Source: TPA_inf: Saccharomyces (Eukaryota). Taken from it: DNA of 64,000 bases. Under the pieces are notes generated by a model, which made no database searches, was not told the DNA's origin, and saw nothing but the letters and a program-made list of their open reading frames with translations. Location: NCBI GenBank assembly GCA_000146045.2, contig BK006947.3, positions 416,001 to 480,000 on the forward strand, written 5' to 3'. Shown one piece after another: positions 10,856 to 60,012 of this stretch; position 1 is the stretch's first letter; each line of letters begins with the position of its first letter. The position numbers and the translations under genes were made by a program.

Positions 10856-11734
10856 CTTACACGTAAGTTTCTTTTTACTGGTCAAGTTGAAAAATAACCA
10901 ATAAATGATTATGGAAAGAACGTTGAAAGAGGAGAGAGGCTGACCCAAGAGGAGAAAACATCGAACCTACGCGACTCCATAGCGCACATCTCCCATGCGC
11001 CCGTGCTTATATATATATAAATATACATACACACATACATGCACGCACATACATGCACGCGCATGACAGTGACTGGCCGTTACTGTACAATTTTTTCAGC
11101 CAAGTATGACACACATTCAACTCAGCTTTTCTGAGGCCTTCTTTCTTTTCCTGCGCGTCGGTAGAGCGATGACTAACCTACTACTGTCTCAGAGCCGGTC
11201 CCGCTCCGGTAGCAATCCTGGGGCTGGTCATAACAGCCGAGTGGAAGTGTCAAAGCGGAGAACAGAAGCATAAGCTCAATCGCTGGACATACGGATGCTT
11301 ATATACGTCTTATTGTCGTTGAAAAATATCGAATTTTTTACTTCATTTATCGAGGCTTCTTCGAGCACTTTTCCGCTATGGCTTTTTCCCCGTTTCCTTT
11401 TAATCACGTGCGCGGGTAGCACCCGGCACACAGCTGGTGTCTCGTCGCACATGCTATTGTGTGTCATCGGGCCACACAAGCATATTGCTTGAATTTTCTT
11501 TCATCGTTCAACTTAAATCCACCCAATCTAGATGTAGCCGTAGCATGTAATAACGTATATCCTTGTTTACATGCATCTGTGCCAGGTGAAACGGTCTGTT
11601 TGAACGCACATCATTTCATATATTAGTCAACTCCTGAAGGTCTTCTTGCCTGTCCGTCAACTGTTTAGACAGACTCTCGTCAATAAAGCGCACTTCTGAT
11701 AAGCACTTTTATTCCTTTTTTTCCACTGTGAACG

Positions 11735-13753
11735 ATGAAGCAGGAGCAGTCCCACGAAGGCGACTCATACAGCACGGAATTCATAAATCTCTTTGGCAAA
11801 GATACCGCAACACACCCTAGCAGCAACAACGGTGCTAATAATAATGGCATGGGGAGCACGAACTCGTTGGACCAGTTTGTGGCAACAGCCTCATCGTCAT
11901 CTTCTCTGGTGACCAGCAGCGAGAATAGGCGCCCCCTAATAGGTGACGTTACCAATAGGGGCAACACTAACCTATATGACCACGCTGTCACGCCAGAAAT
12001 ACTCTTAGAACAGTTGGCCTACGTGGATAACTTCATACCATCTCTGGATAACGAGTTCTCTAATGTGGATTGGAATGTGAATACCACCCATAATAATGCA
12101 AACAATAATGGCGCGGACACTTTCAGCAGCATAAATGCAAATCCTTTTGACTTGGATGAACAACTAGCCATTGAGTTGAGTGCGTTTGCCGACGATTCTT
12201 TCATCTTCCCAGACGAGGATAAGCCGAGCAATAACAATAACAACAGCAATAATGGTAATGACGACCATAGCAACCACGACGTATTGCATGAGGACCCTTC
12301 TACCAATAATAGACAAAGAAATCCTCACTTCTTGACTCAAAGAAGGAATACTTTCCTAACTTCCCAATACGACCAATCAAAGTCTCGATTTTCGTCCAAA
12401 AACAAAAGAAATGGCAATAACGGCGAAACAAACAACTTTGGCGACAATATGCAAAATAACCATCCTTTTGAGCCAAACTTTATGGGAAGCCCTTCTCAGT
12501 TTCCCGCTGACGCAACTAATATGACATCAATCGACCATGGCGGCTTCACAAATGTTGACATTACATCAACTGAGAACAATACTACCGGTGACAATGGAGT
12601 GGATGCGCTATCAAATCTACTACATAGGACAACACACACACCGAACCGCTCCTCCCCCCTAAGCAATGTCACTTCTGCTCAAAATTCCTCTTCACAACAA
12701 CGAAAACATTCGGAAAGCAAAGTCGATAGTAACAGCGATAATAACAGCTCCAACAAAGCCCCCAATATAACTGTTCCTGACTATTCAATTATACCAACCT
12801 CTGTTTTAGTAACTCTATTACCGAGGGTCAACGTGCCCAACGGCGCATATAACTCGTTGATCAGCGCGGGATTTGACAATGATCAAATAGATGCTATAGC
12901 CGCAATAATGGCGTATCATCATCAAAAAAAGATTAGGGAAAATAACAGTAATAATAATAAAAACATCAACACCAATGACAGTCAAGAGGCACCCATTCTA
13001 AAAAACATCAACGAACTTTTAAGTGTCTTAATACCACCCTCTCCGGCTGAAACTGCTGCGCCAACTACCTTATCAACGTCGCCTTCGTTCAATGAGCACG
13101 GTGTAGTAGCAGAGGCTTCTTTTCTAAGCTCCATTTTGGAACTGGGCATAAAGCATCCAAAAAGTAATAATATTCACAATCAACGACAACCTTCACGAAA
13201 CGATCATAAAATATCAAGAGAGAGTGACGGTAACAATGGAAACGATAATGTCCATCATAATAACGCTGTTATTAAGTCAAGTACGACGCGTGGAGACGAA
13301 ATTGCCAAGATACGATCCGAGCCAACTTTAAATGCAAGTTCTTCTGATCACAAGGAAAATAGTTTAAAAAGATCACACTCCGGAGATTTGAAAAATAAAA
13401 AAGTACCCGTCGACCGCAAGTATTCTGATAATGAAGACGATGAATATGACGATGCAGATTTACACGGCTTTGAAAAGAAGCAACTGATCAAGAAAGAGTT
13501 AGGGGACGACGATGAAGATTTATTGATACAGTCGAAAAAATCTCATCAAAAAAAAAAACTAAAGGAAAAGGAGTTAGAATCATCGATACATGAACTGACC
13601 GAAATTGCAGCATCCTTACAAAAACGGATACATACGTTAGAAACGGAAAACAAGCTTTTAAAGAATTTAGTTCTGAGTAGCGGTGAAACGGAAGGAATAA
13701 AAAAAGCTGAAAGCTTAAAGAAGCAAATTTTTGAGAAGGTTCAGAAAGAATAA
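11735..13753 (+). CDS. MET4: bZIP transcriptional activator of sulfur amino-acid metabolism (672 aa). Asn-rich low-complexity regions, C-terminal basic region and leucine zipper.
   Basis: Translation MKQEQSHEGDSYSTEFINLFGKD... with a C-terminal basic and heptad-Leu region (KKKLKEKELESSIHELTEIAASLQKRIHTLETENKLLKNLVL). Confidence 0.92.
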   Translation: MKQEQSHEGDSYSTEFINLFGKDTATHPSSNNGANNNGMGSTNSLDQFVATASSSSSLVTSSENRRPLIGDVTNRGNTNLYDHAVTPEILLEQLAYVDNFIPSLDNEFSNVDWNVNTTHNNANNNGADTFSSINANPFDLDEQLAIELSAFADDSFIFPDEDKPSNNNNNSNNGNDDHSNHDVLHEDPSTNNRQRNPHFLTQRRNTFLTSQYDQSKSRFSSKNKRNGNNGETNNFGDNMQNNHPFEPNFMGSPSQFPADATNMTSIDHGGFTNVDITSTENNTTGDNGVDALSNLLHRTTHTPNRSSPLSNVTSAQNSSSQQRKHSESKVDSNSDNNSSNKAPNITVPDYSIIPTSVLVTLLPRVNVPNGAYNSLISAGFDNDQIDAIAAIMAYHHQKKIRENNSNNNKNINTNDSQEAPILKNINELLSVLIPPSPAETAAPTTLSTSPSFNEHGVVAEASFLSSILELGIKHPKSNNIHNQRQPSRNDHKISRESDGNNGNDNVHHNNAVIKSSTTRGDEIAKIRSEPTLNASSSDHKENSLKRSHSGDLKNKKVPVDRKYSDNEDDEYDDADLHGFEKKQLIKKELGDDDEDLLIQSKKSHQKKKLKEKELESSIHELTEIAASLQKRIHTLETENKLLKNLVLSSGETEGIKKAESLKKQIFEKVQKE

Positions 13754-13776
13754 AATAACAGACTATACAGTTTAAT

Positions 13777-13796
13777 TATATATATATATATATATA
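13777..13796. repeat. (TA)10 dinucleotide microsatellite 23 bp downstream of the MET4 stop.
   Basis: tatatatatatatatatata read directly. Confidence 0.9.
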
Positions 13797-13878
13797 CGTG
13801 CATTTTTCTTAAAGAAATATAACTTTTTTCTTGTACTGCCTGCAATCTCTATTCTTCATTCATCACACATCTATTCAA

Positions 13879-13925
13879 ACGCGTTAAAATTTTTTTGTTA
13901 GCCTATAAGTAAAACGCGTCGCGTG
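13879..13925. promoter_or_regulatory. MluI cell-cycle boxes (MCB, ACGCGT) upstream of POL1. ACGCGT at 13879..13884 and ACGCGTCGCGTG at 13914..13925 lie about 165-210 bp before the ATG.
   Basis: Exact ACGCGT hexamers read from the sequence. POL1 is a classical MBF/MCB-regulated G1/S gene (established). Confidence 0.75.
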
Positions 13926-14086
13926 TATCCAATTTTACTGAATTAAATTCTTTACTCATTGGATGATATATATCTTCTTGGTCTAGACAACGAACACATA
14001 CCAATTCAGACTCACGAGAAAAAAAACTGTCTTCACTCTGCTATTAGAAACCAAATAGTATCAAGGCATAAAATAAACAGTGGAAA

Positions 14087-17000
14087 ATGTCTTCTAAAAG
14101 TGAAAAATTAGAAAAATTGAGAAAGCTGCAAGCCGCTCGAAATGGTACATCCATCGATGATTACGAAGGTGACGAATCAGATGGTGACAGAATATACGAC
14201 GAAATCGACGAAAAAGAATACAGGGCCAGAAAGCGCCAGGAATTGCTGCATGACGATTTTGTTGTAGATGACGATGGTGTAGGCTACGTCGATCGTGGTG
14301 TCGAAGAAGATTGGAGGGAAGTTGATAACAGTTCAAGTGATGAAGACACTGGAAACCTTGCTAGCAAGGATTCTAAAAGGAAGAAGAATATAAAAAGGGA
14401 GAAAGACCACCAGATTACAGATATGCTGCGAACTCAACATTCCAAATCAACACTGCTAGCACATGCAAAAAAATCCCAAAAAAAAAGTATCCCCATCGAT
14501 AATTTTGATGACATTCTTGGTGAGTTTGAATCTGGTGAAGTAGAAAAACCCAATATTTTACTGCCATCCAAATTAAGGGAAAATTTAAATTCTTCGCCGA
14601 CTAGTGAATTTAAATCGTCAATAAAGAGAGTTAACGGAAACGATGAGTCAAGTCATGATGCCGGTATTTCTAAAAAAGTCAAGATTGATCCAGATTCAAG
14701 TACTGATAAATATTTAGAAATCGAATCATCACCGTTAAAATTACAAAGCAGGAAACTGCGCTACGCAAATGATGTACAGGATTTATTGGATGATGTGGAA
14801 AATTCCCCAGTAGTAGCCACAAAGAGACAGAATGTACTTCAAGATACGTTACTAGCAAATCCACCATCCGCTCAAAGTTTGGCTGATGAAGAAGATGATG
14901 AAGATAGTGATGAAGATATTATTCTGAAAAGAAGAACTATGAGAAGTGTGACAACAACTAGACGCGTGAATATAGACTCAAGAAGTAACCCTTCAACTTC
15001 ACCGTTTGTCACAGCACCCGGAACGCCAATCGGTATTAAAGGACTAACTCCAAGTAAATCTTTGCAGAGCAACACCGATGTTGCTACACTTGCGGTTAAT
15101 GTCAAAAAGGAAGATGTGGTAGATCCGGAAACTGATACTTTCCAAATGTTTTGGTTGGATTACTGTGAAGTGAACAACACTTTGATTTTATTTGGTAAGG
15201 TTAAACTAAAGGATGATAATTGTGTGTCAGCCATGGTTCAAATCAACGGTCTCTGTAGAGAGCTATTTTTCCTTCCAAGAGAGGGTAAAACACCTACCGA
15301 TATACACGAGGAAATAATTCCGTTACTGATGGATAAATATGGACTGGATAATATCCGCGCTAAACCTCAAAAAATGAAATATTCGTTTGAGCTTCCTGAC
15401 ATTCCATCTGAAAGTGATTATTTGAAAGTCTTACTTCCATACCAAACACCGAAGTCCAGTCGAGACACCATTCCATCGGATTTATCTAGCGATACCTTTT
15501 ATCATGTTTTTGGTGGGAATTCCAATATTTTTGAAAGTTTTGTTATTCAAAATAGGATTATGGGACCATGCTGGTTAGATATAAAGGGAGCAGATTTCAA
15601 TTCAATTCGTAATGCTTCTCACTGTGCGGTTGAAGTTTCGGTAGATAAGCCTCAGAATATCACGCCTACTACAACAAAGACAATGCCTAATCTGAGATGT
15701 CTATCTTTATCGATTCAGACGTTAATGAATCCCAAGGAAAATAAGCAAGAGATTGTTTCGATAACGTTATCAGCATATAGAAATATCTCGTTGGATTCAC
15801 CGATACCTGAAAATATAAAACCAGACGACTTGTGTACTTTAGTAAGGCCGCCTCAGTCAACTAGTTTCCCATTAGGTTTAGCTGCACTGGCAAAACAGAA
15901 ACTACCCGGTAGAGTCAGGTTGTTCAACAACGAAAAGGCCATGCTATCTTGTTTTTGTGCTATGTTAAAAGTGGAAGACCCAGATGTTATCATAGGCCAT
16001 CGTTTGCAAAATGTCTACTTAGATGTTTTAGCTCATAGAATGCATGATCTCAACATTCCAACGTTCAGCTCTATTGGCCGTCGTTTAAGAAGGACTTGGC
16101 CTGAAAAATTCGGTAGAGGAAATTCGAATATGAACCATTTTTTTATTAGTGACATTTGCTCTGGTAGGCTGATATGTGATATCGCCAATGAAATGGGTCA
16201 ATCATTAACACCCAAATGTCAAAGTTGGGATCTTTCAGAGATGTATCAAGTTACATGTGAAAAGGAGCATAAGCCGTTAGATATTGATTATCAAAATCCA
16301 CAATACCAAAATGATGTAAATAGTATGACAATGGCCCTACAAGAGAATATTACTAATTGTATGATTTCTGCTGAGGTGTCTTATAGAATTCAATTATTAA
16401 CCTTGACTAAACAGTTGACAAATTTGGCTGGTAATGCATGGGCCCAAACGCTAGGCGGTACAAGAGCTGGTAGAAATGAGTATATCTTACTACATGAATT
16501 TTCAAGAAATGGTTTTATTGTTCCTGACAAAGAAGGCAATAGAAGTAGAGCTCAGAAACAAAGACAAAATGAAGAAAATGCTGATGCACCAGTTAATTCT
16601 AAAAAGGCAAAATATCAGGGTGGTTTAGTTTTTGAACCTGAGAAAGGTCTTCATAAGAATTACGTTTTAGTCATGGACTTTAATTCTTTGTATCCATCTA
16701 TTATCCAGGAATTTAATATATGTTTTACCACCGTTGATAGAAATAAGGAAGATATCGATGAGTTACCAAGCGTACCTCCTTCAGAGGTGGATCAGGGTGT
16801 TTTACCAAGGTTATTAGCTAATCTGGTGGATCGTCGACGTGAAGTTAAGAAGGTGATGAAAACTGAAACTGATCCCCATAAGCGAGTTCAATGTGATATT
16901 CGTCAACAAGCTCTAAAATTGACTGCCAATTCTATGTATGGTTGTTTGGGTTATGTTAACAGTAGATTTTACGCAAAGCCGCTCGCCATGTTAGTCACTA

Positions 17001-40564: not shown

Positions 40565-41143
40565 ATGTCTGAAAAGGCCGTTAGAAGGAAACTTGTTATT
40601 ATTGGTGATGGTGCTTGTGGCAAGACCTCTTTACTATATGTATTTACATTAGGAAAATTCCCTGAACAATATCATCCGACAGTGTTCGAGAATTATGTCA
40701 CTGATTGCAGAGTTGACGGAATAAAAGTGTCCTTAACGCTCTGGGATACAGCGGGACAAGAGGAATATGAACGTTTACGTCCATTCTCATATTCAAAAGC
40801 AGATATAATATTAATTGGGTTTGCTGTAGACAATTTTGAATCACTAATTAACGCAAGGACGAAATGGGCGGATGAGGCATTACGATATTGTCCTGACGCA
40901 CCAATCGTTCTTGTAGGCTTGAAAAAAGATTTGAGGCAAGAAGCCCATTTTAAAGAGAATGCTACCGATGAAATGGTTCCCATTGAAGATGCAAAACAAG
41001 TTGCAAGGGCCATTGGGGCCAAGAAATACATGGAATGTAGTGCACTGACTGGTGAGGGTGTGGATGATGTCTTTGAAGTAGCTACAAGAACCAGTTTGCT
41101 TATGAAGAAGGAACCAGGGGCTAACTGTTGCATAATTTTATAA
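40565..41143 (+). CDS. RHO2: Rho-family GTPase Rho2 (192 aa), CAAX box CIIL.
   Basis: MSEKAVRRKLVIIGDGACGKTSLL...WDTAGQEEY... ending ..ANCCIIL. Confidence 0.94.
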   Translation: MSEKAVRRKLVIIGDGACGKTSLLYVFTLGKFPEQYHPTVFENYVTDCRVDGIKVSLTLWDTAGQEEYERLRPFSYSKADIILIGFAVDNFESLINARTKWADEALRYCPDAPIVLVGLKKDLRQEAHFKENATDEMVPIEDAKQVARAIGAKKYMECSALTGEGVDDVFEVATRTSLLMKKEPGANCCIIL

Positions 41144-41703
41144 AAAAAACTTACACTGAAATGATACATTATCTTTTTAGCAAGGGAGGGAAAAACAATA
41201 CCGTATTATAATTTTAATCAAATTTCATAGATATAATGGAATAAGTTAAAAAGGCTTATCGATAGTGCATGTATAAAACACAAACCCATTCGATATGTTT
41301 GTTCGTTAATGTCCTACAGATTCTTATTCGAGAGCCTTTACCAGAAGCAAAATTTCCGACGGATATAAGAAAATGGCACATCAAACCATAGCTCAAGGTA
41401 CTGCGCCGATGAGCTAAACGGAACTGCCTAGTTTGATTATTTTTCGTTTATATACTTATTTACTTATTTACGCTATTTGTATTCGAATTCCTTACGAGGC
41501 GATGAGTGAAAGACGCGCCAGTAGGACGCGTCTTTTTTTTTTCAGTATAATGTAAACATATTATTGAATTGCCGAAGGAGACAAAAAGAAAAGAAAAGAG
41601 GAGATCATCTTTCATATAATCCAACCACGTCGTAGAGCAAACCACGACAATTTTAACTTTCTGTTTCAGTTAAAGGAGTTTATAACGACCAGCACGGCTA
41701 ACC

Positions 41704-50642: not shown

Positions 50643-51130
50643 GTAAACATACACATGTATAGCATAATCTTCGATTCCTTTTACCCATTCGTAGATGGCA
50701 TCGACAGTGTACTTATAATACTACCGTGAGAAACGATATTAAGAACAAGACGAAAAATGGTGGAAAATCTGGAAAGCAAGAACGTAGCACGCTAGAGTTA
50801 TTCTAGCTTGTCAGCTCGACTGTTTAATTATTATTGTTATTATATTAACATTAACGTAATAACCATTGAACTACATTAAAGAAATAACTGTCTCGCTTAT
50901 ATCTGGTCTATTTTTTGTTTTTTGCCTTTCCTTTTAAATTCTTTATAACCTTGAAAACAAAAAATCACATTGGTAAATTACAATCATTTATTACCAAATT
51001 TGTCCATTAACTATTTTAGCGTGACTGACTGATAAAGACTGTTTCACTCTCTTTATTTATTCATAACAAAAATTCAGATATTTTGAACTATAAAGTACTA
51101 AAGGCAGAAAAATTAATAGCAAATTAAGCG

Positions 51131-53623
51131 ATGGCAATCAAGTCATTGGAATCGTTCCTTTTCGAAAGAGGTCTAGTAGGATCCTATGCCATTGAGGCTC
51201 TGAATAATTGTACCCTGGATATAGACGTCAACCATTATGTTTCCAGATTGTTGACCAATAAAAGAGAACAGTATTTGGATGCCATTGGTGGTTTCCCTAC
51301 CAGTTTAAAAATGTATTTGGAAAGCGACTTAAAGATATTCAAGGATTTCAATATTACCCCTATTTTTGTCTTTAATGGTGGTTTGACTTACAACCAATTA
51401 GAGGCATCGGGCCATTTTACTGCAGCATCTGCTTCTGCGTCGATTTCGTCAACCACTACTTCCAGCAGCGGTACCAATGCCACAACAAGATCCAACACGG
51501 AATCCGTTCTTTTGCAGAGAAGTAGAGGCTGGACACAATGGAACAACTTGATTAGTTCGAATCAGAATTCCTATATTGACCAGCCTATTCAACCCCAAGA
51601 GCCATTCAGACATAACACCACAATTGACTCCAAAGCTTACCAAAACGATTTGATCGCTTATTTTATTGAGCATGGGTATATGTACCAAGTGGCTCCTTAC
51701 TCCTCTTGGTTTCAACTAGCATATTTATTGAATAGCGCTTATATTGATGCGATCTACGGCCCAACTGATTGTTTGATGCTAGATTGTGTTGATAGGTTCA
51801 TTTTGGGTATGGAATTTCCAAATAAAGAATTTCGATTCATTGACAGGTCAAGAGTGATGAAGGATTTAGGTTGTACCCATGAAGAGTTTATCGATATTGC
51901 TATGGCTGTAGGTAATGATTTGCAACCAACAACTTTACCACCATTGCAAATTTATCCAGTTCCTCAGCTGTTTGATATTGCTCTAGAAATGGTTTTGAAT
52001 ACAGGTACAAACTTCTATGCCTATCAACTATCTACAACCTTACAAAATGACTCCAAAGAGAATATTCAAAACTACCAAAGAGGTATTTCTGCATTAAGAT
52101 ACATGCCAGTCTTGAAAGATACAGGTAAAGTTGAATTATTTGTTCAAGAGATCGTTGTTTCAGAGGAGGACAGTGAAAAGAATAACAAGGATGGAAAAAA
52201 GAGTAATCTTTCCTCACCATCTTCTGCGTCATCTAGTGCTTCTCCTGCTACCACCGTGACTAAGAACGCTAGTGAAAAGTTAACTTATGAAAAATCCAGC
52301 ACTAAAGAGGTTAGAAAACCAAGAGATATTCCTAATGATGTTCATGATTTTATCGGCCAAATGTTACCTCATGAATACTATTTCTATAGATCCATAGGAC
52401 TGGTTACTGGAAAATTATTTGACGCAATTGTCACAGGAGTTTATCCTGAAGAGCCTCCATTGGGCGGAGGATCTTCTACATCCTACAAGAAACTGGTTTC
52501 CAAGTCCGTTGAAATCTTCAAGAATAAAGAAATCAATTTATTAACTCAACCAATTAACAGATACTATCAGATTAAACAAATTAAACAAGTCAAGTGGTAT
52601 GCGGCAAATGAGCCTACCACTTTGACCAACAGGATGTCACCTTCTATGTTTGAAACTATCAACCACTTAATTGTTAAAACAGAAACGTCTGATGAAAAGG
52701 AATTTTCTATCTCTGAGTTCATTACAACAATAAATGGTTCTAGCAATATGGCGAAAGATTTTATATCTGAAAAAGTCATTTTCCCAAACTCCGTACCAAT
52801 CGAATCCAAATTAAACTCACCATTTAATTTATTGTCGACCAATTTCTTAAGATTACTAGTACTATTGGAGTTCTTCACTTTTGATTTCAAGGAAAAACTG
52901 CTAGAGCCTACGAGATGGGGTGAGGTATTCTTAAAATTAAATGAGCTCAATATTGACAGTAAGTATCACGAATCAGTTATTATCTTTTTGGTATTTTTGA
53001 AATGCGATGTCTTAAAACTTGACGAAGAAGTTCAACCACCGGCTCCCTCAGCCCTATCTCAAGCCACTCTTCGTTCATATCCTGAAGAATCATTGTACGT
53101 CCTATTGATTACGCGTGTATTAACTTTATTTCAAGTGGACCAAAAGCCATCAAATTACCACGGACCAATTGATAAGAAAACTTTGATCTTTAGAGATCAT
53201 CTTTCTTTCATAAAGGAAAATTTAAATGAACTTTTTGAAGCCGTTTTGATCTCATCTTTAACTTCTGGCGAGTTTAATAGATTATCACTTGATAACTTTG
53301 GTTGGGCAAGAAAGATTGTTAGATATTTACCGTTCAAATTAGATTCCCCAAATACTATAATGGCTATGATGTGGGAGTTTTTCTTACAAAAATATCTTCA
53401 CAATGGTAATGCCAAGAATGATGCATTGTCTTTAGTTGCTACTGAATTCAACACTTACAAATCCACACCAAATCTTGATGAACAGTTTGTCGAATCCCAT
53501 AGATTTCTTCTTGAAATTTCAAAAGTCATGCAGGAGCTAAATGCTGCGAAATTAATCGATGAAAACGTGTTTAAATTATTCACTAAAGCAGTTGAGTTTA
53601 CTACAACAGCTCTATCTAGCTGA
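51131..53623 (+). CDS. MKT1: Mkt1 (830 aa), with an N-terminal XPG-like nuclease fold. Codon 30 (51218..51220) is GAT = Asp.
   Basis: MAIKSLESFLFERGLVGSYAIEALNNCTLD(30)IDVNHY.... Length and synteny. Asp30 was read directly. Confidence 0.92.
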   Translation: MAIKSLESFLFERGLVGSYAIEALNNCTLDIDVNHYVSRLLTNKREQYLDAIGGFPTSLKMYLESDLKIFKDFNITPIFVFNGGLTYNQLEASGHFTAASASASISSTTTSSSGTNATTRSNTESVLLQRSRGWTQWNNLISSNQNSYIDQPIQPQEPFRHNTTIDSKAYQNDLIAYFIEHGYMYQVAPYSSWFQLAYLLNSAYIDAIYGPTDCLMLDCVDRFILGMEFPNKEFRFIDRSRVMKDLGCTHEEFIDIAMAVGNDLQPTTLPPLQIYPVPQLFDIALEMVLNTGTNFYAYQLSTTLQNDSKENIQNYQRGISALRYMPVLKDTGKVELFVQEIVVSEEDSEKNNKDGKKSNLSSPSSASSSASPATTVTKNASEKLTYEKSSTKEVRKPRDIPNDVHDFIGQMLPHEYYFYRSIGLVTGKLFDAIVTGVYPEEPPLGGGSSTSYKKLVSKSVEIFKNKEINLLTQPINRYYQIKQIKQVKWYAANEPTTLTNRMSPSMFETINHLIVKTETSDEKEFSISEFITTINGSSNMAKDFISEKVIFPNSVPIESKLNSPFNLLSTNFLRLLVLLEFFTFDFKEKLLEPTRWGEVFLKLNELNIDSKYHESVIIFLVFLKCDVLKLDEEVQPPAPSALSQATLRSYPEESLYVLLITRVLTLFQVDQKPSNYHGPIDKKTLIFRDHLSFIKENLNELFEAVLISSLTSGEFNRLSLDNFGWARKIVRYLPFKLDSPNTIMAMMWEFFLQKYLHNGNAKNDALSLVATEFNTYKSTPNLDEQFVESHRFLLEISKVMQELNAAKLIDENVFKLFTKAVEFTTTALSS

Positions 53624-54052: not shown

Positions 54053-55102
54053 TCAATTGATTTCTGCTTGTAATGCTTGCAATTCGTGTCTCTTATTGTT
54101 CAAGTAATTCTCCAATACTTCAACCTGCTGTTCAATGTTATCCAAGTCATCAGTTATCGACCTGATGTTAATCCGCTTAGAAAGTTTTGAGCCTCCTTGA
54201 GTTTTTTCACTCTTTTTGTAGTTCAAAAGGCCTTCTAATTGTTCTCTCATGTTCGCAACTTGATCATCTGTCAGAGAAGCATATTTTTGCTTTATACTGT
54301 CTTCATTTGAAAGCACGTTACTGCCACTGCTATCGGAACTCGAGTTCTGCCCATTGTCACGCAGATTGTCCACTTCGTTAGCTTCTTCTTTTCTCTTTGT
54401 AGGAGGTTGAGAGGACCGTAAATCATAGCTCAGTTGTTTTTTATTGCACACCTCCGCCAGAGAATTTGGTAAACTTGCTGGAATTTCAGCACCCAAATCA
54501 TTTCTTTGTCTTAAACAGTGAATAAAATAAAAAGTAGGATCTCTATCAATTGATGGCAAATTTTGTGGGTTAATTAAACTCCAAACCTTATTTAAATCTG
54601 TCTTACTGATGTTAAAAAATTTTGTGGAAAGTTTTGTTGACAGTTCGTTGAATGTAATAGTACCATCGGTTAGTTTTGCACAGCTATTATAAATTTTTTC
54701 ATATTGATTCAAATCATCTGGAGACATGTACCAATCTACTTTGATTTCCTTCTTTGGAGGCAAGTCTGCGTTTTCTATTTGCTTGCGCTTCTTTCTTTCT
54801 TTGATTAGATTCACCTTACTCCCTGGAATCAACCAATCAGGCAATTCATCTGGAACAGAGCTAATGTTTTTATTAACCATATCAAATATTAATCTCATGC
54901 AAATTACAAATTCCTCAAAGTCTAAATTGTCGTCGTCATCAATATCAGCTAAAAACCAAATCTTGTTTAGAACCGATGAATCTAATTTGGAATTATAAAG
55001 AATTGGTAAAACCTGGTCATGGTTTACCTTATTCTCTATTGGTTTCAAACCCGAGAAGATTTGCCAGTATTTTTTTATTTCAAATTGTTCCAACTTGGGC
55101 AT
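54053..55102 (-). CDS. END3: EH-domain endocytosis protein End3 (349 aa).
   Basis: ATG at 55102. Two EH/EF-hand-like regions at the N-terminus ([21 protein letters not shown]...) and C-terminal repeats. Synteny. Confidence 0.92.
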
Positions 55103-55376: not shown

Positions 55377-56861
55377 ATGCTGCTGAAAAATTGCGAGACG
55401 GACAAGCAGCGAGATATACGGTATGCGTGTTTGTTCAAGGAACTTGATGTTAAGGGAAATGGTCAAGTTACTCTAGATAATCTGATAAGTGCTTTTGAGA
55501 AGAACGACCATCCGCTCAAGGGAAATGATGAGGCAATCAAAATGCTGTTTACTGCAATGGATGTTAACAAGGACTCTGTAGTTGATTTAAGCGATTTCAA
55601 GAAGTATGCTTCCAATGCCGAATCTCAAATTTGGAACGGCTTCCAGAGGATAGATTTAGATCATGACGGTAAGATTGGCATTAACGAAATAAATAGGTAT
55701 TTGTCAGACCTCGACAACCAGAGCATATGTAATAATGAACTTAATCATGAACTTTCAAATGAAAAGATGAACAAATTCTCGAGGTTTTTTGAATGGGCGT
55801 TTCCAAAGAGAAAAGCCAACATTGCGCTACGAGGCCAGGCTAGCCACAAAAAGAATACTGATAATGATCGGTCAAAGAAAACCACCGACTCAGATTTATA
55901 CGTTACATATGATCAATGGAGAGACTTTTTGCTGCTGGTACCGAGAAAGCAGGGTTCGAGACTTCATACTGCTTATTCCTATTTTTACCTATTCAACGAA
56001 GATGTCGATCTGTCCTCAGAGGGAGATGTTACTCTCATAAACGATTTCATTCGCGGGTTCGGGTTTTTTATTGCTGGTGGTATTTCAGGTGTTATTTCAA
56101 GGACTTGTACCGCGCCATTTGATAGACTGAAAGTGTTTCTCATCGCAAGAACGGATCTATCCTCGATCTTGTTAAATTCAAAAACAGATCTCCTTGCTAA
56201 AAACCCCAATGCTGACATAAACAAGATATCATCTCCATTAGCAAAGGCTGTCAAAAGCTTATATAGGCAAGGCGGGATAAAGGCTTTTTATGTTGGGAAC
56301 GGTTTAAACGTCATCAAAGTTTTTCCAGAAAGTTCGATAAAGTTTGGTTCTTTCGAGGTCACCAAGAAAATAATGACCAAATTAGAAGGCTGCCGCGACA
56401 CAAAAGATCTTTCAAAGTTCTCTACTTACATTGCTGGTGGTTTAGCTGGTATGGCAGCTCAGTTTTCCGTTTATCCTATAGATACTTTGAAATTCAGGGT
56501 GCAGTGCGCTCCTTTGGACACAAAGTTGAAGGGGAATAATTTGCTCTTTCAGACTGCAAAAGATATGTTTCGAGAGGGGGGGGGTCAGATTATTTTACAG
56601 AGGTGTCACAGTCGGTATAGTGGGCATATTTCCCTATGCTGCATTAGATTTGGGGACTTTTTCTGCCTTAAAAAAATGGTATATTGCCAAACAGGCAAAG
56701 ACCCTGAACCTACCACAAGATCAGGTCACTCTAAGCAACCTGGTTGTACTTCCAATGGGTGCATTCAGTGGAACTGTAGGAGCTTCTGTTGTTTATCCAA
56801 TCAATCTTTTAAGAACAAGACTACAAGCCCAAGGAACATATGCACATCCTTATGTGTATAA
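55377..56861 (+). CDS. SAL1: Ca-binding mitochondrial carrier Sal1 (EF-hand N-terminal domain plus three mitochondrial-carrier repeats). As it reads here the ORF is frameshifted in a G9 tract at 56576..56584, so the annotated 494-aa product ends in 92 out-of-frame residues (sal1-1-type allele).
   Basis: EF-hand loops (DVKGNGQVT, DVNKDSVVD, DLDHDGKIG) and carrier repeats 1-2 are in frame 0. After ...KDMFREGG the frame-0 translation becomes Cys-rich nonsense (GQIILQRCHSRYSGHISLCC...). The third carrier repeat continues in frame +1. Confidence 0.9.
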   Translation: MLLKNCETDKQRDIRYACLFKELDVKGNGQVTLDNLISAFEKNDHPLKGNDEAIKMLFTAMDVNKDSVVDLSDFKKYASNAESQIWNGFQRIDLDHDGKIGINEINRYLSDLDNQSICNNELNHELSNEKMNKFSRFFEWAFPKRKANIALRGQASHKKNTDNDRSKKTTDSDLYVTYDQWRDFLLLVPRKQGSRLHTAYSYFYLFNEDVDLSSEGDVTLINDFIRGFGFFIAGGISGVISRTCTAPFDRLKVFLIARTDLSSILLNSKTDLLAKNPNADINKISSPLAKAVKSLYRQGGIKAFYVGNGLNVIKVFPESSIKFGSFEVTKKIMTKLEGCRDTKDLSKFSTYIAGGLAGMAAQFSVYPIDTLKFRVQCAPLDTKLKGNNLLFQTAKDMFREGGGQIILQRCHSRYSGHISLCCIRFGDFFCLKKMVYCQTGKDPEPTTRSGHSKQPGCTSNGCIQWNCRSFCCLSNQSFKNKTTSPRNICTSLCV

Positions 56862-57015
56862 CGGCTTTAAAGATGTTTTGTTAAAGACGCTAGAAAGGGA
56901 AGGTTATCAAGGTCTATTTAAAGGTCTAGTACCAACTTTAGCAAAAGTATGTCCAGCAGTTTCCATCAGCTATTTATGTTACGAAAATCTGAAAAAATTC
57001 ATGAATCTGGAGTAG
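56584..57015 (+). other. SAL1: SAL1 C-terminal coding segment displaced into the +1 frame (third mitochondrial-carrier repeat, VRLFYRGVTVGIVGIFPYAALDLGTF...KKFMNLE, stop 57013..57015). Removing one G from the G9 run restores a contiguous ~545-aa Sal1.
   Basis: The frame-1 translation gives carrier-like motifs (PYAALDLGTF, VYPINLLRTRLQAQG) and is contiguous with frame 0 if the G tract were G8. The 56620..57015 ORF-track entry is part of this segment. Confidence 0.85.
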
Positions 57016-57272: not shown

Positions 57273-57390
57273 CTCTTAATAATCATTATGCGATAAAATG
57301 TTTCACCACATCGAAAACTTATTAATTGAGACAGAAAAAAGGTGTAAGCAAAAGGAACAGAGGTATATCCCTGTGAAATATTTATTTAGC

Positions 57391-60012
57391 ATGACACAAA
57401 TTCATCAGATAAACGATATAGATGTTCATCGAATTACATCTGGACAAGTTATCACCGACTTAACAACTGCAGTGAAAGAACTCGTTGATAATAGTATAGA
57501 TGCGAACGCAAACCAGATCGAAATAATCTTTAAAGATTATGGTCTTGAATCTATCGAATGTTCTGATAATGGTGATGGCATAGACCCTTCAAATTATGAG
57601 TTCTTAGCTTTAAAACATTACACATCAAAAATTGCGAAATTTCAAGATGTTGCTAAAGTACAGACGTTAGGGTTTAGAGGGGAGGCCCTATCTTCTTTAT
57701 GTGGCATAGCTAAACTAAGTGTGATAACAACAACTTCACCACCAAAAGCGGATAAGTTGGAGTATGATATGGTCGGTCACATTACTTCAAAGACAACGAC
57801 ATCAAGAAATAAAGGGACGACCGTGTTAGTTTCGCAGTTATTTCATAACTTGCCCGTTAGACAGAAAGAATTTAGCAAAACTTTTAAGCGCCAGTTTACC
57901 AAATGTCTCACAGTTATACAAGGTTATGCAATCATAAATGCTGCCATTAAATTTTCAGTTTGGAATATCACACCAAAGGGTAAAAAAAATCTAATTCTAT
58001 CAACAATGAGAAATTCAAGTATGAGAAAGAATATATCCTCAGTATTCGGTGCAGGTGGTATGCGTGGGCTTGAAGAGGTTGATTTAGTGCTTGATTTAAA
58101 TCCCTTCAAGAATAGAATGCTTGGGAAATACACCGATGATCCTGATTTCTTAGACCTCGATTATAAAATTCGAGTGAAGGGCTATATATCACAGAATTCG
58201 TTTGGTTGTGGTAGAAATAGTAAGGATAGGCAATTCATTTATGTGAATAAAAGGCCAGTGGAATACTCTACGCTTTTAAAATGCTGCAATGAGGTTTACA
58301 AAACGTTCAATAATGTTCAATTTCCGGCTGTATTTCTCAATCTTGAATTACCCATGAGCTTAATTGATGTAAACGTCACTCCAGACAAAAGAGTGATACT
58401 GTTGCACAACGAACGGGCCGTCATTGATATTTTCAAAACAACTCTCAGTGATTATTACAATAGACAAGAATTAGCTCTTCCCAAAAGAATGTGCTCACAA
58501 TCAGAACAACAAGCTCAGAAAAGACTTAAAACGGAAGTCTTTGATGATAGAAGCACAACACACGAATCCGATAATGAAAACTATCATACCGCCAGAAGCG
58601 AAAGTAATCAATCCAATCATGCACATTTTAATAGTACTACTGGCGTAATAGACAAAAGTAATGGTACAGAACTAACTTCTGTGATGGACGGTAATTATAC
58701 TAATGTCACTGATGTCATCGGTTCGGAGTGTGAAGTTTCGGTTGATTCATCAGTTGTATTGGATGAGGGCAACTCAAGTACACCGACTAAGAAGCTGCCA
58801 AGTATCAAAACAGATTCTCAAAACCTAAGTGATCTGAACCTGAATAATTTTTCCAATCCTGAATTTCAAAATATAACTAGTCCAGATAAAGCACGTAGCT
58901 TGGAAAAAGTTGTTGAAGAACCAGTTTATTTTGATATTGATGGTGAAAAGTTCCAAGAAAAAGCGGTTCTATCACAAGCAGATGGTTTAGTTTTTGTAGA
59001 TAATGAATGTCATGAGCATACAAATGACTGCTGTCATCAAGAAAGAAGAGGAAGTACTGACACAGAACAAGATGATGAAGCTGACTCTATATACGCAGAG
59101 ATTGAGCCAGTTGAAATCAATGTGAGAACTCCTCTAAAGAACTCACGTAAATCGATTTCCAAAGATAATTATAGGTCATTGAGTGATGGATTGACGCATC
59201 GCAAATTCGAAGATGAGATATTGGAGTACAATTTAAGCACAAAAAATTTTAAAGAAATAAGTAAAAATGGCAAACAAATGAGTAGCATCATAAGTAAAAG
59301 AAAATCAGAAGCTCAAGAAAACATTATCAAAAATAAGGACGAACTAGAGGATTTCGAACAAGGAGAAAAGTATCTGACGTTAACAGTTTCAAAAAATGAT
59401 TTTAAAAAAATGGAGGTTGTTGGACAATTTAATTTAGGATTTATCATAGTGACCAGAAAAGTTGATAACAAATATGATCTGTTTATTGTCGATCAGCATG
59501 CAAGTGATGAAAAGTATAATTTCGAAACACTGCAGGCCGTGACAGTTTTTAAATCGCAGAAATTGATAATACCTCAGCCGGTAGAATTAAGTGTCATTGA
59601 TGAACTTGTGGTGCTGGACAATTTACCAGTTTTTGAAAAGAATGGATTCAAATTGAAAATTGACGAAGAAGAAGAGTTTGGCTCCAGAGTTAAGCTGTTA
59701 AGCTTACCTACTTCCAAACAAACCCTTTTTGATTTGGGTGATTTTAATGAACTGATACATTTGATCAAAGAAGACGGTGGGTTACGAAGAGACAACATCA
59801 GATGTTCCAAGATTCGTTCTATGTTTGCTATGAGAGCATGTAGAAGTAGTATAATGATAGGTAAACCGCTGAATAAGAAGACTATGACCAGAGTCGTTCA
59901 TAATCTCAGTGAACTTGATAAGCCTTGGAATTGTCCCCATGGACGTCCAACAATGAGACATTTAATGGAATTACGTGATTGGAGCTCATTTTCGAAGGAT
60001 TACGAAATATGA
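57391..60012 (+). CDS. PMS1: MutL-homologue mismatch-repair protein Pms1 (873 aa from ATG 57391). An in-frame upstream ATG at 57298 would add 31 aa.
   Basis: GHKL ATPase motifs (ELVDNSIDA, DNGDGI, GFRGEAL) and a C-terminal MutL dimerisation/endonuclease region (DQHASDEKYNFE, ..CPHGRPT..). The start choice is discussed in findings. Confidence 0.9.
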   Translation: MTQIHQINDIDVHRITSGQVITDLTTAVKELVDNSIDANANQIEIIFKDYGLESIECSDNGDGIDPSNYEFLALKHYTSKIAKFQDVAKVQTLGFRGEALSSLCGIAKLSVITTTSPPKADKLEYDMVGHITSKTTTSRNKGTTVLVSQLFHNLPVRQKEFSKTFKRQFTKCLTVIQGYAIINAAIKFSVWNITPKGKKNLILSTMRNSSMRKNISSVFGAGGMRGLEEVDLVLDLNPFKNRMLGKYTDDPDFLDLDYKIRVKGYISQNSFGCGRNSKDRQFIYVNKRPVEYSTLLKCCNEVYKTFNNVQFPAVFLNLELPMSLIDVNVTPDKRVILLHNERAVIDIFKTTLSDYYNRQELALPKRMCSQSEQQAQKRLKTEVFDDRSTTHESDNENYHTARSESNQSNHAHFNSTTGVIDKSNGTELTSVMDGNYTNVTDVIGSECEVSVDSSVVLDEGNSSTPTKKLPSIKTDSQNLSDLNLNNFSNPEFQNITSPDKARSLEKVVEEPVYFDIDGEKFQEKAVLSQADGLVFVDNECHEHTNDCCHQERRGSTDTEQDDEADSIYAEIEPVEINVRTPLKNSRKSISKDNYRSLSDGLTHRKFEDEILEYNLSTKNFKEISKNGKQMSSIISKRKSEAQENIIKNKDELEDFEQGEKYLTLTVSKNDFKKMEVVGQFNLGFIIVTRKVDNKYDLFIVDQHASDEKYNFETLQAVTVFKSQKLIIPQPVELSVIDELVVLDNLPVFEKNGFKLKIDEEEEFGSRVKLLSLPTSKQTLFDLGDFNELIHLIKEDGGLRRDNIRCSKIRSMFAMRACRSSIMIGKPLNKKTMTRVVHNLSELDKPWNCPHGRPTMRHLMELRDWSSFSKDYEI

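Follow-up and report, generated by a model that had tools for sequence, protein, structure and literature searches.

The best-described counterpart of the locus treated here is MKT1(89A), the allele that encodes Mkt1 with an aspartate at residue 30 (Steinmetz 2002; Deutschbauer & Davis 2005; Sinha 2006). It was analysed in a window of 64,000 nucleotides, which protein identities and a coordinate offset assign to Saccharomyces cerevisiae S288C chrXIV:416,001-480,000, and which also contains RHO2, END3 and SAL1. For the high-temperature-growth quantitative trait locus (QTL) on this chromosome, S288c was reported to carry MKT1 30D/453K and END3 258S/268D, and 30G was found in all ten other backgrounds (Sinha 2006, PMC1359075). 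According to the same study, residue 453 of MKT1 is neutral for high-temperature growth, END3 258S grows better at high temperature, residue 268 of END3 is neutral, and the effect of RHO2 maps to the 3' untranslated region (3'UTR). The BY allele of MKT1 was absent from 13 other strains (Deutschbauer & Davis, as cited in PMC2440805); MKT1 and SAL1 variants were listed as private to S288c and/or W303 (Strope 2015, PMC4417123); and the minor allele frequency at MKT1 is below 5% (PMC10935846). MKT1 89A was found in S288c alone, with 89G in EM93 (Gupta 2015, PMC4454590). EM93, isolated in the wild from a fig, is the source of some 88% of S288C, and heterozygous markers are spread along its chromosome XIV. 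The neighbouring sal1-1 allele is a frameshift at codon 403 of 545; W303 has neither 30D nor this frameshift (PMC12458176).

In the literature, 30D is linked to QTLs for high-temperature growth, sporulation, petite frequency and drug response as well as to expression hotspots. Our analysis leaves us nearly certain that the MKT1 Asp30 allele beside a frameshifted SAL1 in this window is the documented laboratory-strain variant, with 30D being private and derived, as it stands in the S288C reference.

MKT1 codon 30

MKT1 (YNL085W, 830 residues) occupies positions 51131-53623 on the forward strand (chrXIV:467131-469623), as determined from the open reading frame (ORF), its translation, Pfam and identity with NP_014314.3. 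The encoded protein is Mkt1, because Pfam assigns to it the domains XPG_N (residues 1-102, E-value 8.6e-29), MKT1_N (401-490, 1.6e-32) and MKT1_C (574-824, 8.6e-66). By exact-sequence look-up, it matches Mkt1p of S288C (NP_014314.3, database entry P0002) over its full length. Codon 30 (51218-51220, forward strand) is GAT and hence Asp, in the context ...NNCTLD30IDV...; its middle base, A at 51219, is nucleotide 89 of MKT1 and chrXIV:467219. An earlier note on this DNA had read the codon in this way, and the coordinates which it gave for MKT1, END3, RHO2 and SAL1 all proved exact. Codon 453 (52487-52489, forward strand) is AAG, encoding a derived Lys with A at nucleotide 1358. Upstream of the gene, position -104 in the strict sense is 51027 (G); the base that varies is 51028, which precedes the ATG by 103 bases. 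It is A in the window and G in two of the contigs that were compared with it, namely L002, which is of S288C type and carries 30D, and L008. The 'a-104g' site of Sinha 2006 is probably position 51028, the numbering of the paper being off by one.

Two sets of sequences were used to judge how unusual Asp30 is. The first comprised 15 distinct Mkt1 sequences of S. cerevisiae, namely those listed out of the 182 members of their cluster. Asp30 occurs in one of these, which is the window's own, and Gly30 in the other 14. Arg453 is found in 13 of these 14 and in S. paradoxus, whose Mkt1 reads Gly30 and Arg453; Lys453 is shared with the 30G allele P0003. The second set consisted of 83 homologue cluster representatives, which range from Saccharomyces to Ogataea and in which residue 30 sits in the motif LGIDVNHYVSRLL. 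Here, position 30 is Gly in 82 cases and Val in one. Because Gly30 is present in 82/83 representatives and in 14/14 other alleles, Asp30 is a real and unusual state and not an ordinary polymorphism. At the level of DNA, 51219 is G (GGT, Gly) in contigs L004, L005, L006, L007, L008, L009 (S. paradoxus), L011 and L012. A metagenome scan for the codon-30 context gave two S. cerevisiae contigs, both with Gly30 and Arg453, which are too few for a frequency. Judged by these alleles, Asp30 is a derived state that is in effect confined to S288C. The earlier note had described 30D as a rare allele of the S288C lineage and had proposed comparing codon 30 with other strains, conceding that the two alleles might be inverted. 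They were not: all 14 other alleles have Gly, in agreement with PMC1359075, PMC4417123 and PMC4454590, and Asp30 occurs in no sequence sampled that is not of S288C type.

Residue 30 falls within the XPG_N domain. In an alignment with Rad2, which is weak but consistent (E = 0.003), D30-I31-D32 of Mkt1 is placed opposite A-V-D of the catalytic core. An AlphaFold model of Mkt1, computed with 51 homologues, has a mean predicted local distance difference test (pLDDT) score of 84.9 and a predicted template modelling (TM) score of 0.87. In this model, residue 30 is part of a predicted strand (28-32), which is followed by a helix (33-40), and the pLDDT of this block is about 94. The model's top Foldseek matches are EXO1, FEN1 and Rad2, with E-values down to 2e-10 and target TM scores up to 0.71. 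Among the Mkt1 homologues, Gly30, Ile31 and Asp32 are each conserved to at least 90%.

These data suggest how the allele may act. A single G-to-A transition at nucleotide 89 accounts for Asp in place of a nearly invariant Gly. The site is predicted to lie in the first core β-strand of the FEN1/EXO1/Rad2-like XPG-N domain, and the conserved Asp32 follows two residues later. A charged side chain instead of Gly in a buried strand by an acidic pocket could perturb the domain's fold or its function. We infer that the exchange would disturb the strand beside the conserved acidic residue and lower Mkt1 function. In the literature, 30D acts as a loss-of-function or reduction-of-function allele of a post-transcriptional regulator; Mkt1 works at this level with Pbp1 (PMC1359075). 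Deletion of MKT1 in an 89A background left sporulation unaltered (Gupta 2015, PMC4454590).

The SAL1 lesion and the age of the haplotype

The frameshifted SAL1 allele sal1-1 (YNL083W) occupies positions 55377-56861 on the forward strand and encodes 494 residues; by exact-sequence look-up, the product is identical to NP_014316.3 of S288C. The lesion site is located at 56576-56586 (forward strand), with a run of nine G at 56576-56584. If one G is removed from this run, an ORF of 545 residues results, and the two products part at residue 403. At the lesion site, the window and contigs L001-L004 read GGGGGGGGGTC, the intact alleles (L005, L007, L008) read GGGTGGGC-TC, and SAL1 of S. paradoxus reads GGCGGGCTC. 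Compared with the intact alleles, sal1-1 thus differs by T>G at 56580, by C>G at 56584, and by one extra G. The corresponding variants in a published supplementary table are chrXIV:472577 GG>G, 472580 G>T and 472584 G>C (PMC12458176). A plain slip of 1 bp in an existing G tract was considered as the origin of sal1-1 and ruled out, as the intact alleles read GGGTGGGC. Judged by the alleles aligned here, sal1-1 is a clustered multi-base change and not a homopolymer slip.

Downstream of the lesion, the out-of-frame 3' remnant of SAL1 extends over 56587-57015 (forward strand), as deduced from the frame translations, the restored ORF and an ORF at 56620-57015. Read in the intact frame, this stretch codes for what remains of carrier repeat 2 and for the whole of repeat 3, and ends at the original stop codon. 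Three Mito_carr matches are obtained for intact Sal1 (204.7 bits) and two for the window Sal1 (99.9 bits), which keeps the EF-hands. The frameshift at residue 403 lies within the Mito_carr repeat at 347-437. Situated about 5.4 kb downstream of MKT1 codon 30, sal1-1 would thus truncate a calcium-binding mitochondrial ATP/ADP carrier inside repeat 2. From its domain content, the product is predicted to be a truncated carrier that has lost repeat 3.

Two further observations concern SAL1 gene models. SAL1 of the ADM strain (P0037, 442 residues) is a second truncated model, which is 99.8% identical to the intact protein over residues 1-432 and then divergent; either a further natural truncation or an artefact of the gene model may underlie it. 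SAL1 and PMS1 share one 90% protein cluster, because some assemblies have fused SAL1-PMS1 models of 1390-1394 residues. This looks like an artefact of clustering or annotation.

The earlier note had proposed that 30D and the SAL1 frameshift together mark an S288C-type haplotype. This was confirmed: in each of the 23 contigs read whose Mkt1 is exactly the 30D protein, SAL1 encodes 494 residues, and these contigs fall into three distinct contexts. L001 (22.5 kb compared) and L003 (18.8 kb) each depart from the window at a single position, 55767. Within the non-coding DNA, the base-level comparison was confined to window positions beyond 41130. L002 has five extra single-nucleotide polymorphisms relative to the other S288C-type contigs.

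The order in which the two lesions arose can be approached via the BY-type sal1-1 protein (P0144), which is found on 57 contigs. Among the 24 of them that were read, there is one context with MKT1-30G. This context, 30G/K453 with sal1-1, is that of L004/L014 (GCA_947370305.1, contig CANCNK010000014.1, locus 10001-15731). Over 22.5 kb, L004 differs from the window at two positions alone, 51219, where it has G, and 55767. The source name of P0144 is ACA_G0046520, and ACA denotes EM93_3 in the ScRAP strain table; L004 therefore appears to represent EM93_3, which is a segregant derived from the wild S288C progenitor. As sal1-1 resides on a 30G, EM93-like haplotype, the frameshift is probably older than the laboratory lineage, with 30D alone being later; sal1-1 is lineage-specific, but probably not of laboratory origin. 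In this scenario, sal1-1, MKT1-K453 and END3-D268 would already have been on the progenitor (EM93-type) haplotype, to which G89A (30D) would have been added later. No paper mentioning both sal1-1 and EM93 was found in the literature searched. Another 30G contig, L005, was considered as a copy of W303 and rejected for two reasons. L005 has K453, but 468488 A>G (R453) is tabulated for W303; it also has G at 55767, and W303 is not the strain tabulated for the alternative G at 471767.

MKT1-30D and sal1-1 are hence physically linked in S288C derivatives, but of different ages. This difference bears on the proposal that the linked variants form a co-adapted laboratory block, selected jointly under domestication, rather than independent lesions linked by chance. 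In favour of such a block, MKT1 and SAL1 each influence growth and the stability of the mitochondrial genome, and their repaired alleles interact (PMC12458176); moreover, one group is on record as having retained 30D since petite frequency was lower. However, sal1-1 already occurs on the 30G progenitor haplotype, and END3-258S and RHO2-F91 are ancestral (see below). We therefore regard joint selection as unlikely.

Alternatively, Asp30 might be a natural polymorphism of low frequency, inherited from a wild progenitor, and not a mutation that occurred after the isolation of EM93. EM93 is a heterozygous diploid with markers on chromosome XIV, about 12% of S288C stems from other progenitors, and a single EM93 segregant haplotype was sampled; all of this leaves room for such an origin. 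Yet the EM93_3-like contig has the same haplotype over 22.5 kb and nevertheless encodes Gly30, 89A was reported for S288c alone and 89G for EM93 (PMC4454590), and no sequence sampled outside the S288C type has Asp30. A wild origin of Asp30 is thus very improbable. We lean towards a history in which only 30D arose after isolation, the clustered sal1-1 was already present in EM93 on the haplotype inherited by S288C, and Met131 of Sal1 (A at 55767) is a back-change private to the reference. If this is true, sal1-1 represents natural loss-of-function variation and is not a product of domestication.

The base at 55767 also discriminates between the reference assembly and its derivatives. It is A in the window (chrXIV:471767), and G in the S288C-type contigs L001-L004 and in L005. 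As a consequence, codon 131 of SAL1 (55767-55769) is ATG (Met131) in the window, and the BY-type and EM93_3-type copies have Val131. An exact-sequence look-up recorded the 494-residue Sal1 with Met131 on one contig alone, which is named S288C. The supplementary table of PMC12458176 gives chrXIV:471767 A>G as the BY allele. S. paradoxus and L007, a divergent strain, likewise have A at 55767, which makes the window base the ancestral state; the reference A may represent a reversion, or else a change restricted to the reference isolate. Identical sequences named S288C exist for 10/10 further window proteins (INP52, LEU4, MET4, POL1, AVT4, RAS2, YNL095C, TOP2, TCB2, EOS1). In addition, at least ten gene or variant coordinates of S288C chromosome XIV in the supplementary tables of PMC12458176 are related to those of the window by a constant offset of 416,000, among them MKT1 (467131-469623), D30G (467219) and the SAL1 variants (472577, 472580, 472584). 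As the window has the reference A at 55767 and the S288C-type contigs have G, its sequence is that of the reference assembly itself rather than of a BY derivative. That it might come from a BY4741/BY4742-type or other S288C derivative instead of the reference S288C (AB972) assembly fits the near-identity of L001-L004 to the window over 22.5 kb, but is scarcely credible given A at 55767, which differs from the G of BY (PMC12458176) and of all S288C-type contigs fetched, and given the single contig, named S288C, that encodes the Met131 form.

None of the data contradict the identification, but several limits apply to our interpretation of a private, derived and hypomorphic MKT1 allele on a progenitor haplotype. 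The polarity of Mkt1 residues among S. cerevisiae strains is based on 15 of 182 cluster members. Contig counts are skewed by the repeated sequencing of laboratory strains and are not population frequencies. The assignment of L004 to EM93_3 follows from a shared protein name and an accession series, and not from a strain label. The structural consequence of G30D is deduced, not measured, and 30D may retain activity for phenotypes other than sporulation (PMC4454590).

END3, RHO2 and other neighbours

END3 (YNL084C, 349 residues) is encoded on the reverse strand at 54053-55102, with Ser258 and Asp268. The window End3 is identical to allele P0017, which is shared by End3p of S288C and several YJM strains (101 contigs). 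Codon 258 (54329-54331, reverse strand) is AGC and thus Ser, as the earlier note had read it. Ser258 is ancestral and common: it is present in S. paradoxus, in L007 and in 8 of the 14 further END3 alleles that were listed. The alternative, Asn258, is also common but derived, and the main Asn258 allele is found on 193 contigs. The situation is reversed at codon 268 (54299-54301, reverse strand). Here, the window has the derived Asp; S. paradoxus has Asn, as does each of the 14 other listed alleles.

RHO2 (YNL090W, 192 residues) is located at 40565-41143 on the forward strand. Its Phe91 is shared by S. paradoxus and S. kudriavzevii and belongs to the majority allele (720 contigs); it is ancestral. 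The 3' flank of RHO2 up to the start of TOP2 (41144-41703, forward strand) is in the S288C-type state: it has T at 41263 and G at 41485, both of which are derived when set against S. paradoxus and L007, and which coincide with the W303 variants chrXIV:457263 and 457485 (table in PMC12458176). Both positions are candidates for the sites underlying the RHO2 3'UTR QTL.

Two residues which might have been counted among the laboratory-specific alleles were therefore rejected as such, END3 Ser258 for being ancestral in S. paradoxus and common among alleles, and RHO2 Phe91 for being ancestral and part of the majority allele. The earlier note had named RHO2, END3 and SAL1 as neighbouring causal genes mapped in the QTL studies of MKT1; RHO2, MKT1 and END3 are all present in the window with the S288c states of Sinha 2006. 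It had also treated END3 Ser258 as an allele of the laboratory lineage, which is contradicted by its occurrence in S. paradoxus, L007 and 8/14 other alleles. The more general statement that several laboratory-strain-specific alleles are linked here is correct for 30D, which is private, and for sal1-1, which is lineage-restricted, but not for END3 Ser258 and RHO2 Phe91, which are ancestral or widespread.

The remaining observations concern other genes of the window. For PMS1 (57298-60012), the open frame comprises 904 residues from an upstream ATG, and the annotated protein has 873 residues with its start at 57391. Residue 818 (numbering of the 873-residue protein) is Arg in the window, which we take to be the S288c-type partner in the MLH1-PMS1 incompatibility. 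PMS1 of L007 has a four-residue insertion (TCEG) after residue 415 and four substitutions. The LEU4 protein cluster includes partial bacterial Tet(A) efflux proteins, which looks like a clustering or annotation artefact. A search for tRNA genes within the 64-kb window found none.

Comparison with the described systems

For crosses with S288C or BY strains, these results mean that traits linked to the region are due to a hypomorphic MKT1 allele private to this background and to a truncated SAL1, and not to species-typical variation. This caveat on S288C/BY phenotypes is long established. END3-258S and RHO2-F91 should not be counted as laboratory-specific.

Mkt1 shares with the FEN1/EXO1/XPG(Rad2) superfamily the Pfam domain XPG_N and, according to the model, the predicted fold of its N-terminal half. 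Residue 30 aligns two positions ahead of the first conserved active-site Asp of the strand. Mkt1 differs from these enzymes by the additional domains MKT1_N and MKT1_C and by being an mRNA regulator that binds Pbp1. Mkt1 is not known to have nuclease activity.

Compared with MKT1(89A)/Mkt1-D30, the window allele is identical: the same base is changed, and K453 is included. With respect to the high-temperature-growth QTL of chromosome XIV, the window has the S288c combination of MKT1 30D/453K, END3 258S/268D and RHO2 F91, and the 3' flank of RHO2 is S288C-type. Note that END3 258S is the beneficial allele of S288c in this QTL and, according to our analysis, ancestral; it constitutes no laboratory-specific defect. 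The window shares with sal1-1 (Chen 2004; Dimitrov 2009), as these studies are cited in PMC12458176, the frameshift at codon 403 and the product of 494 residues. Two differences were noted. In the literature, sal1-1 is given as a 1-bp insertion, whereas the window allele combines two substitutions with an extra G (GGGTGGGC-TC to GGGGGGGGGTC); furthermore, the window copy has Met131, and BY-type and EM93_3-type copies of sal1-1 have Val131. Already known are thus the restriction of the D30G difference to S288C, sal1-1 itself, the RHO2-MKT1-END3 QTL and the 89G state of EM93. To these, our analysis makes minor additions, namely the polarity of END3 residues 258 and 268, the probable pre-laboratory origin of sal1-1, its clustered nature, and the base at 55767 that occurs in the reference only.

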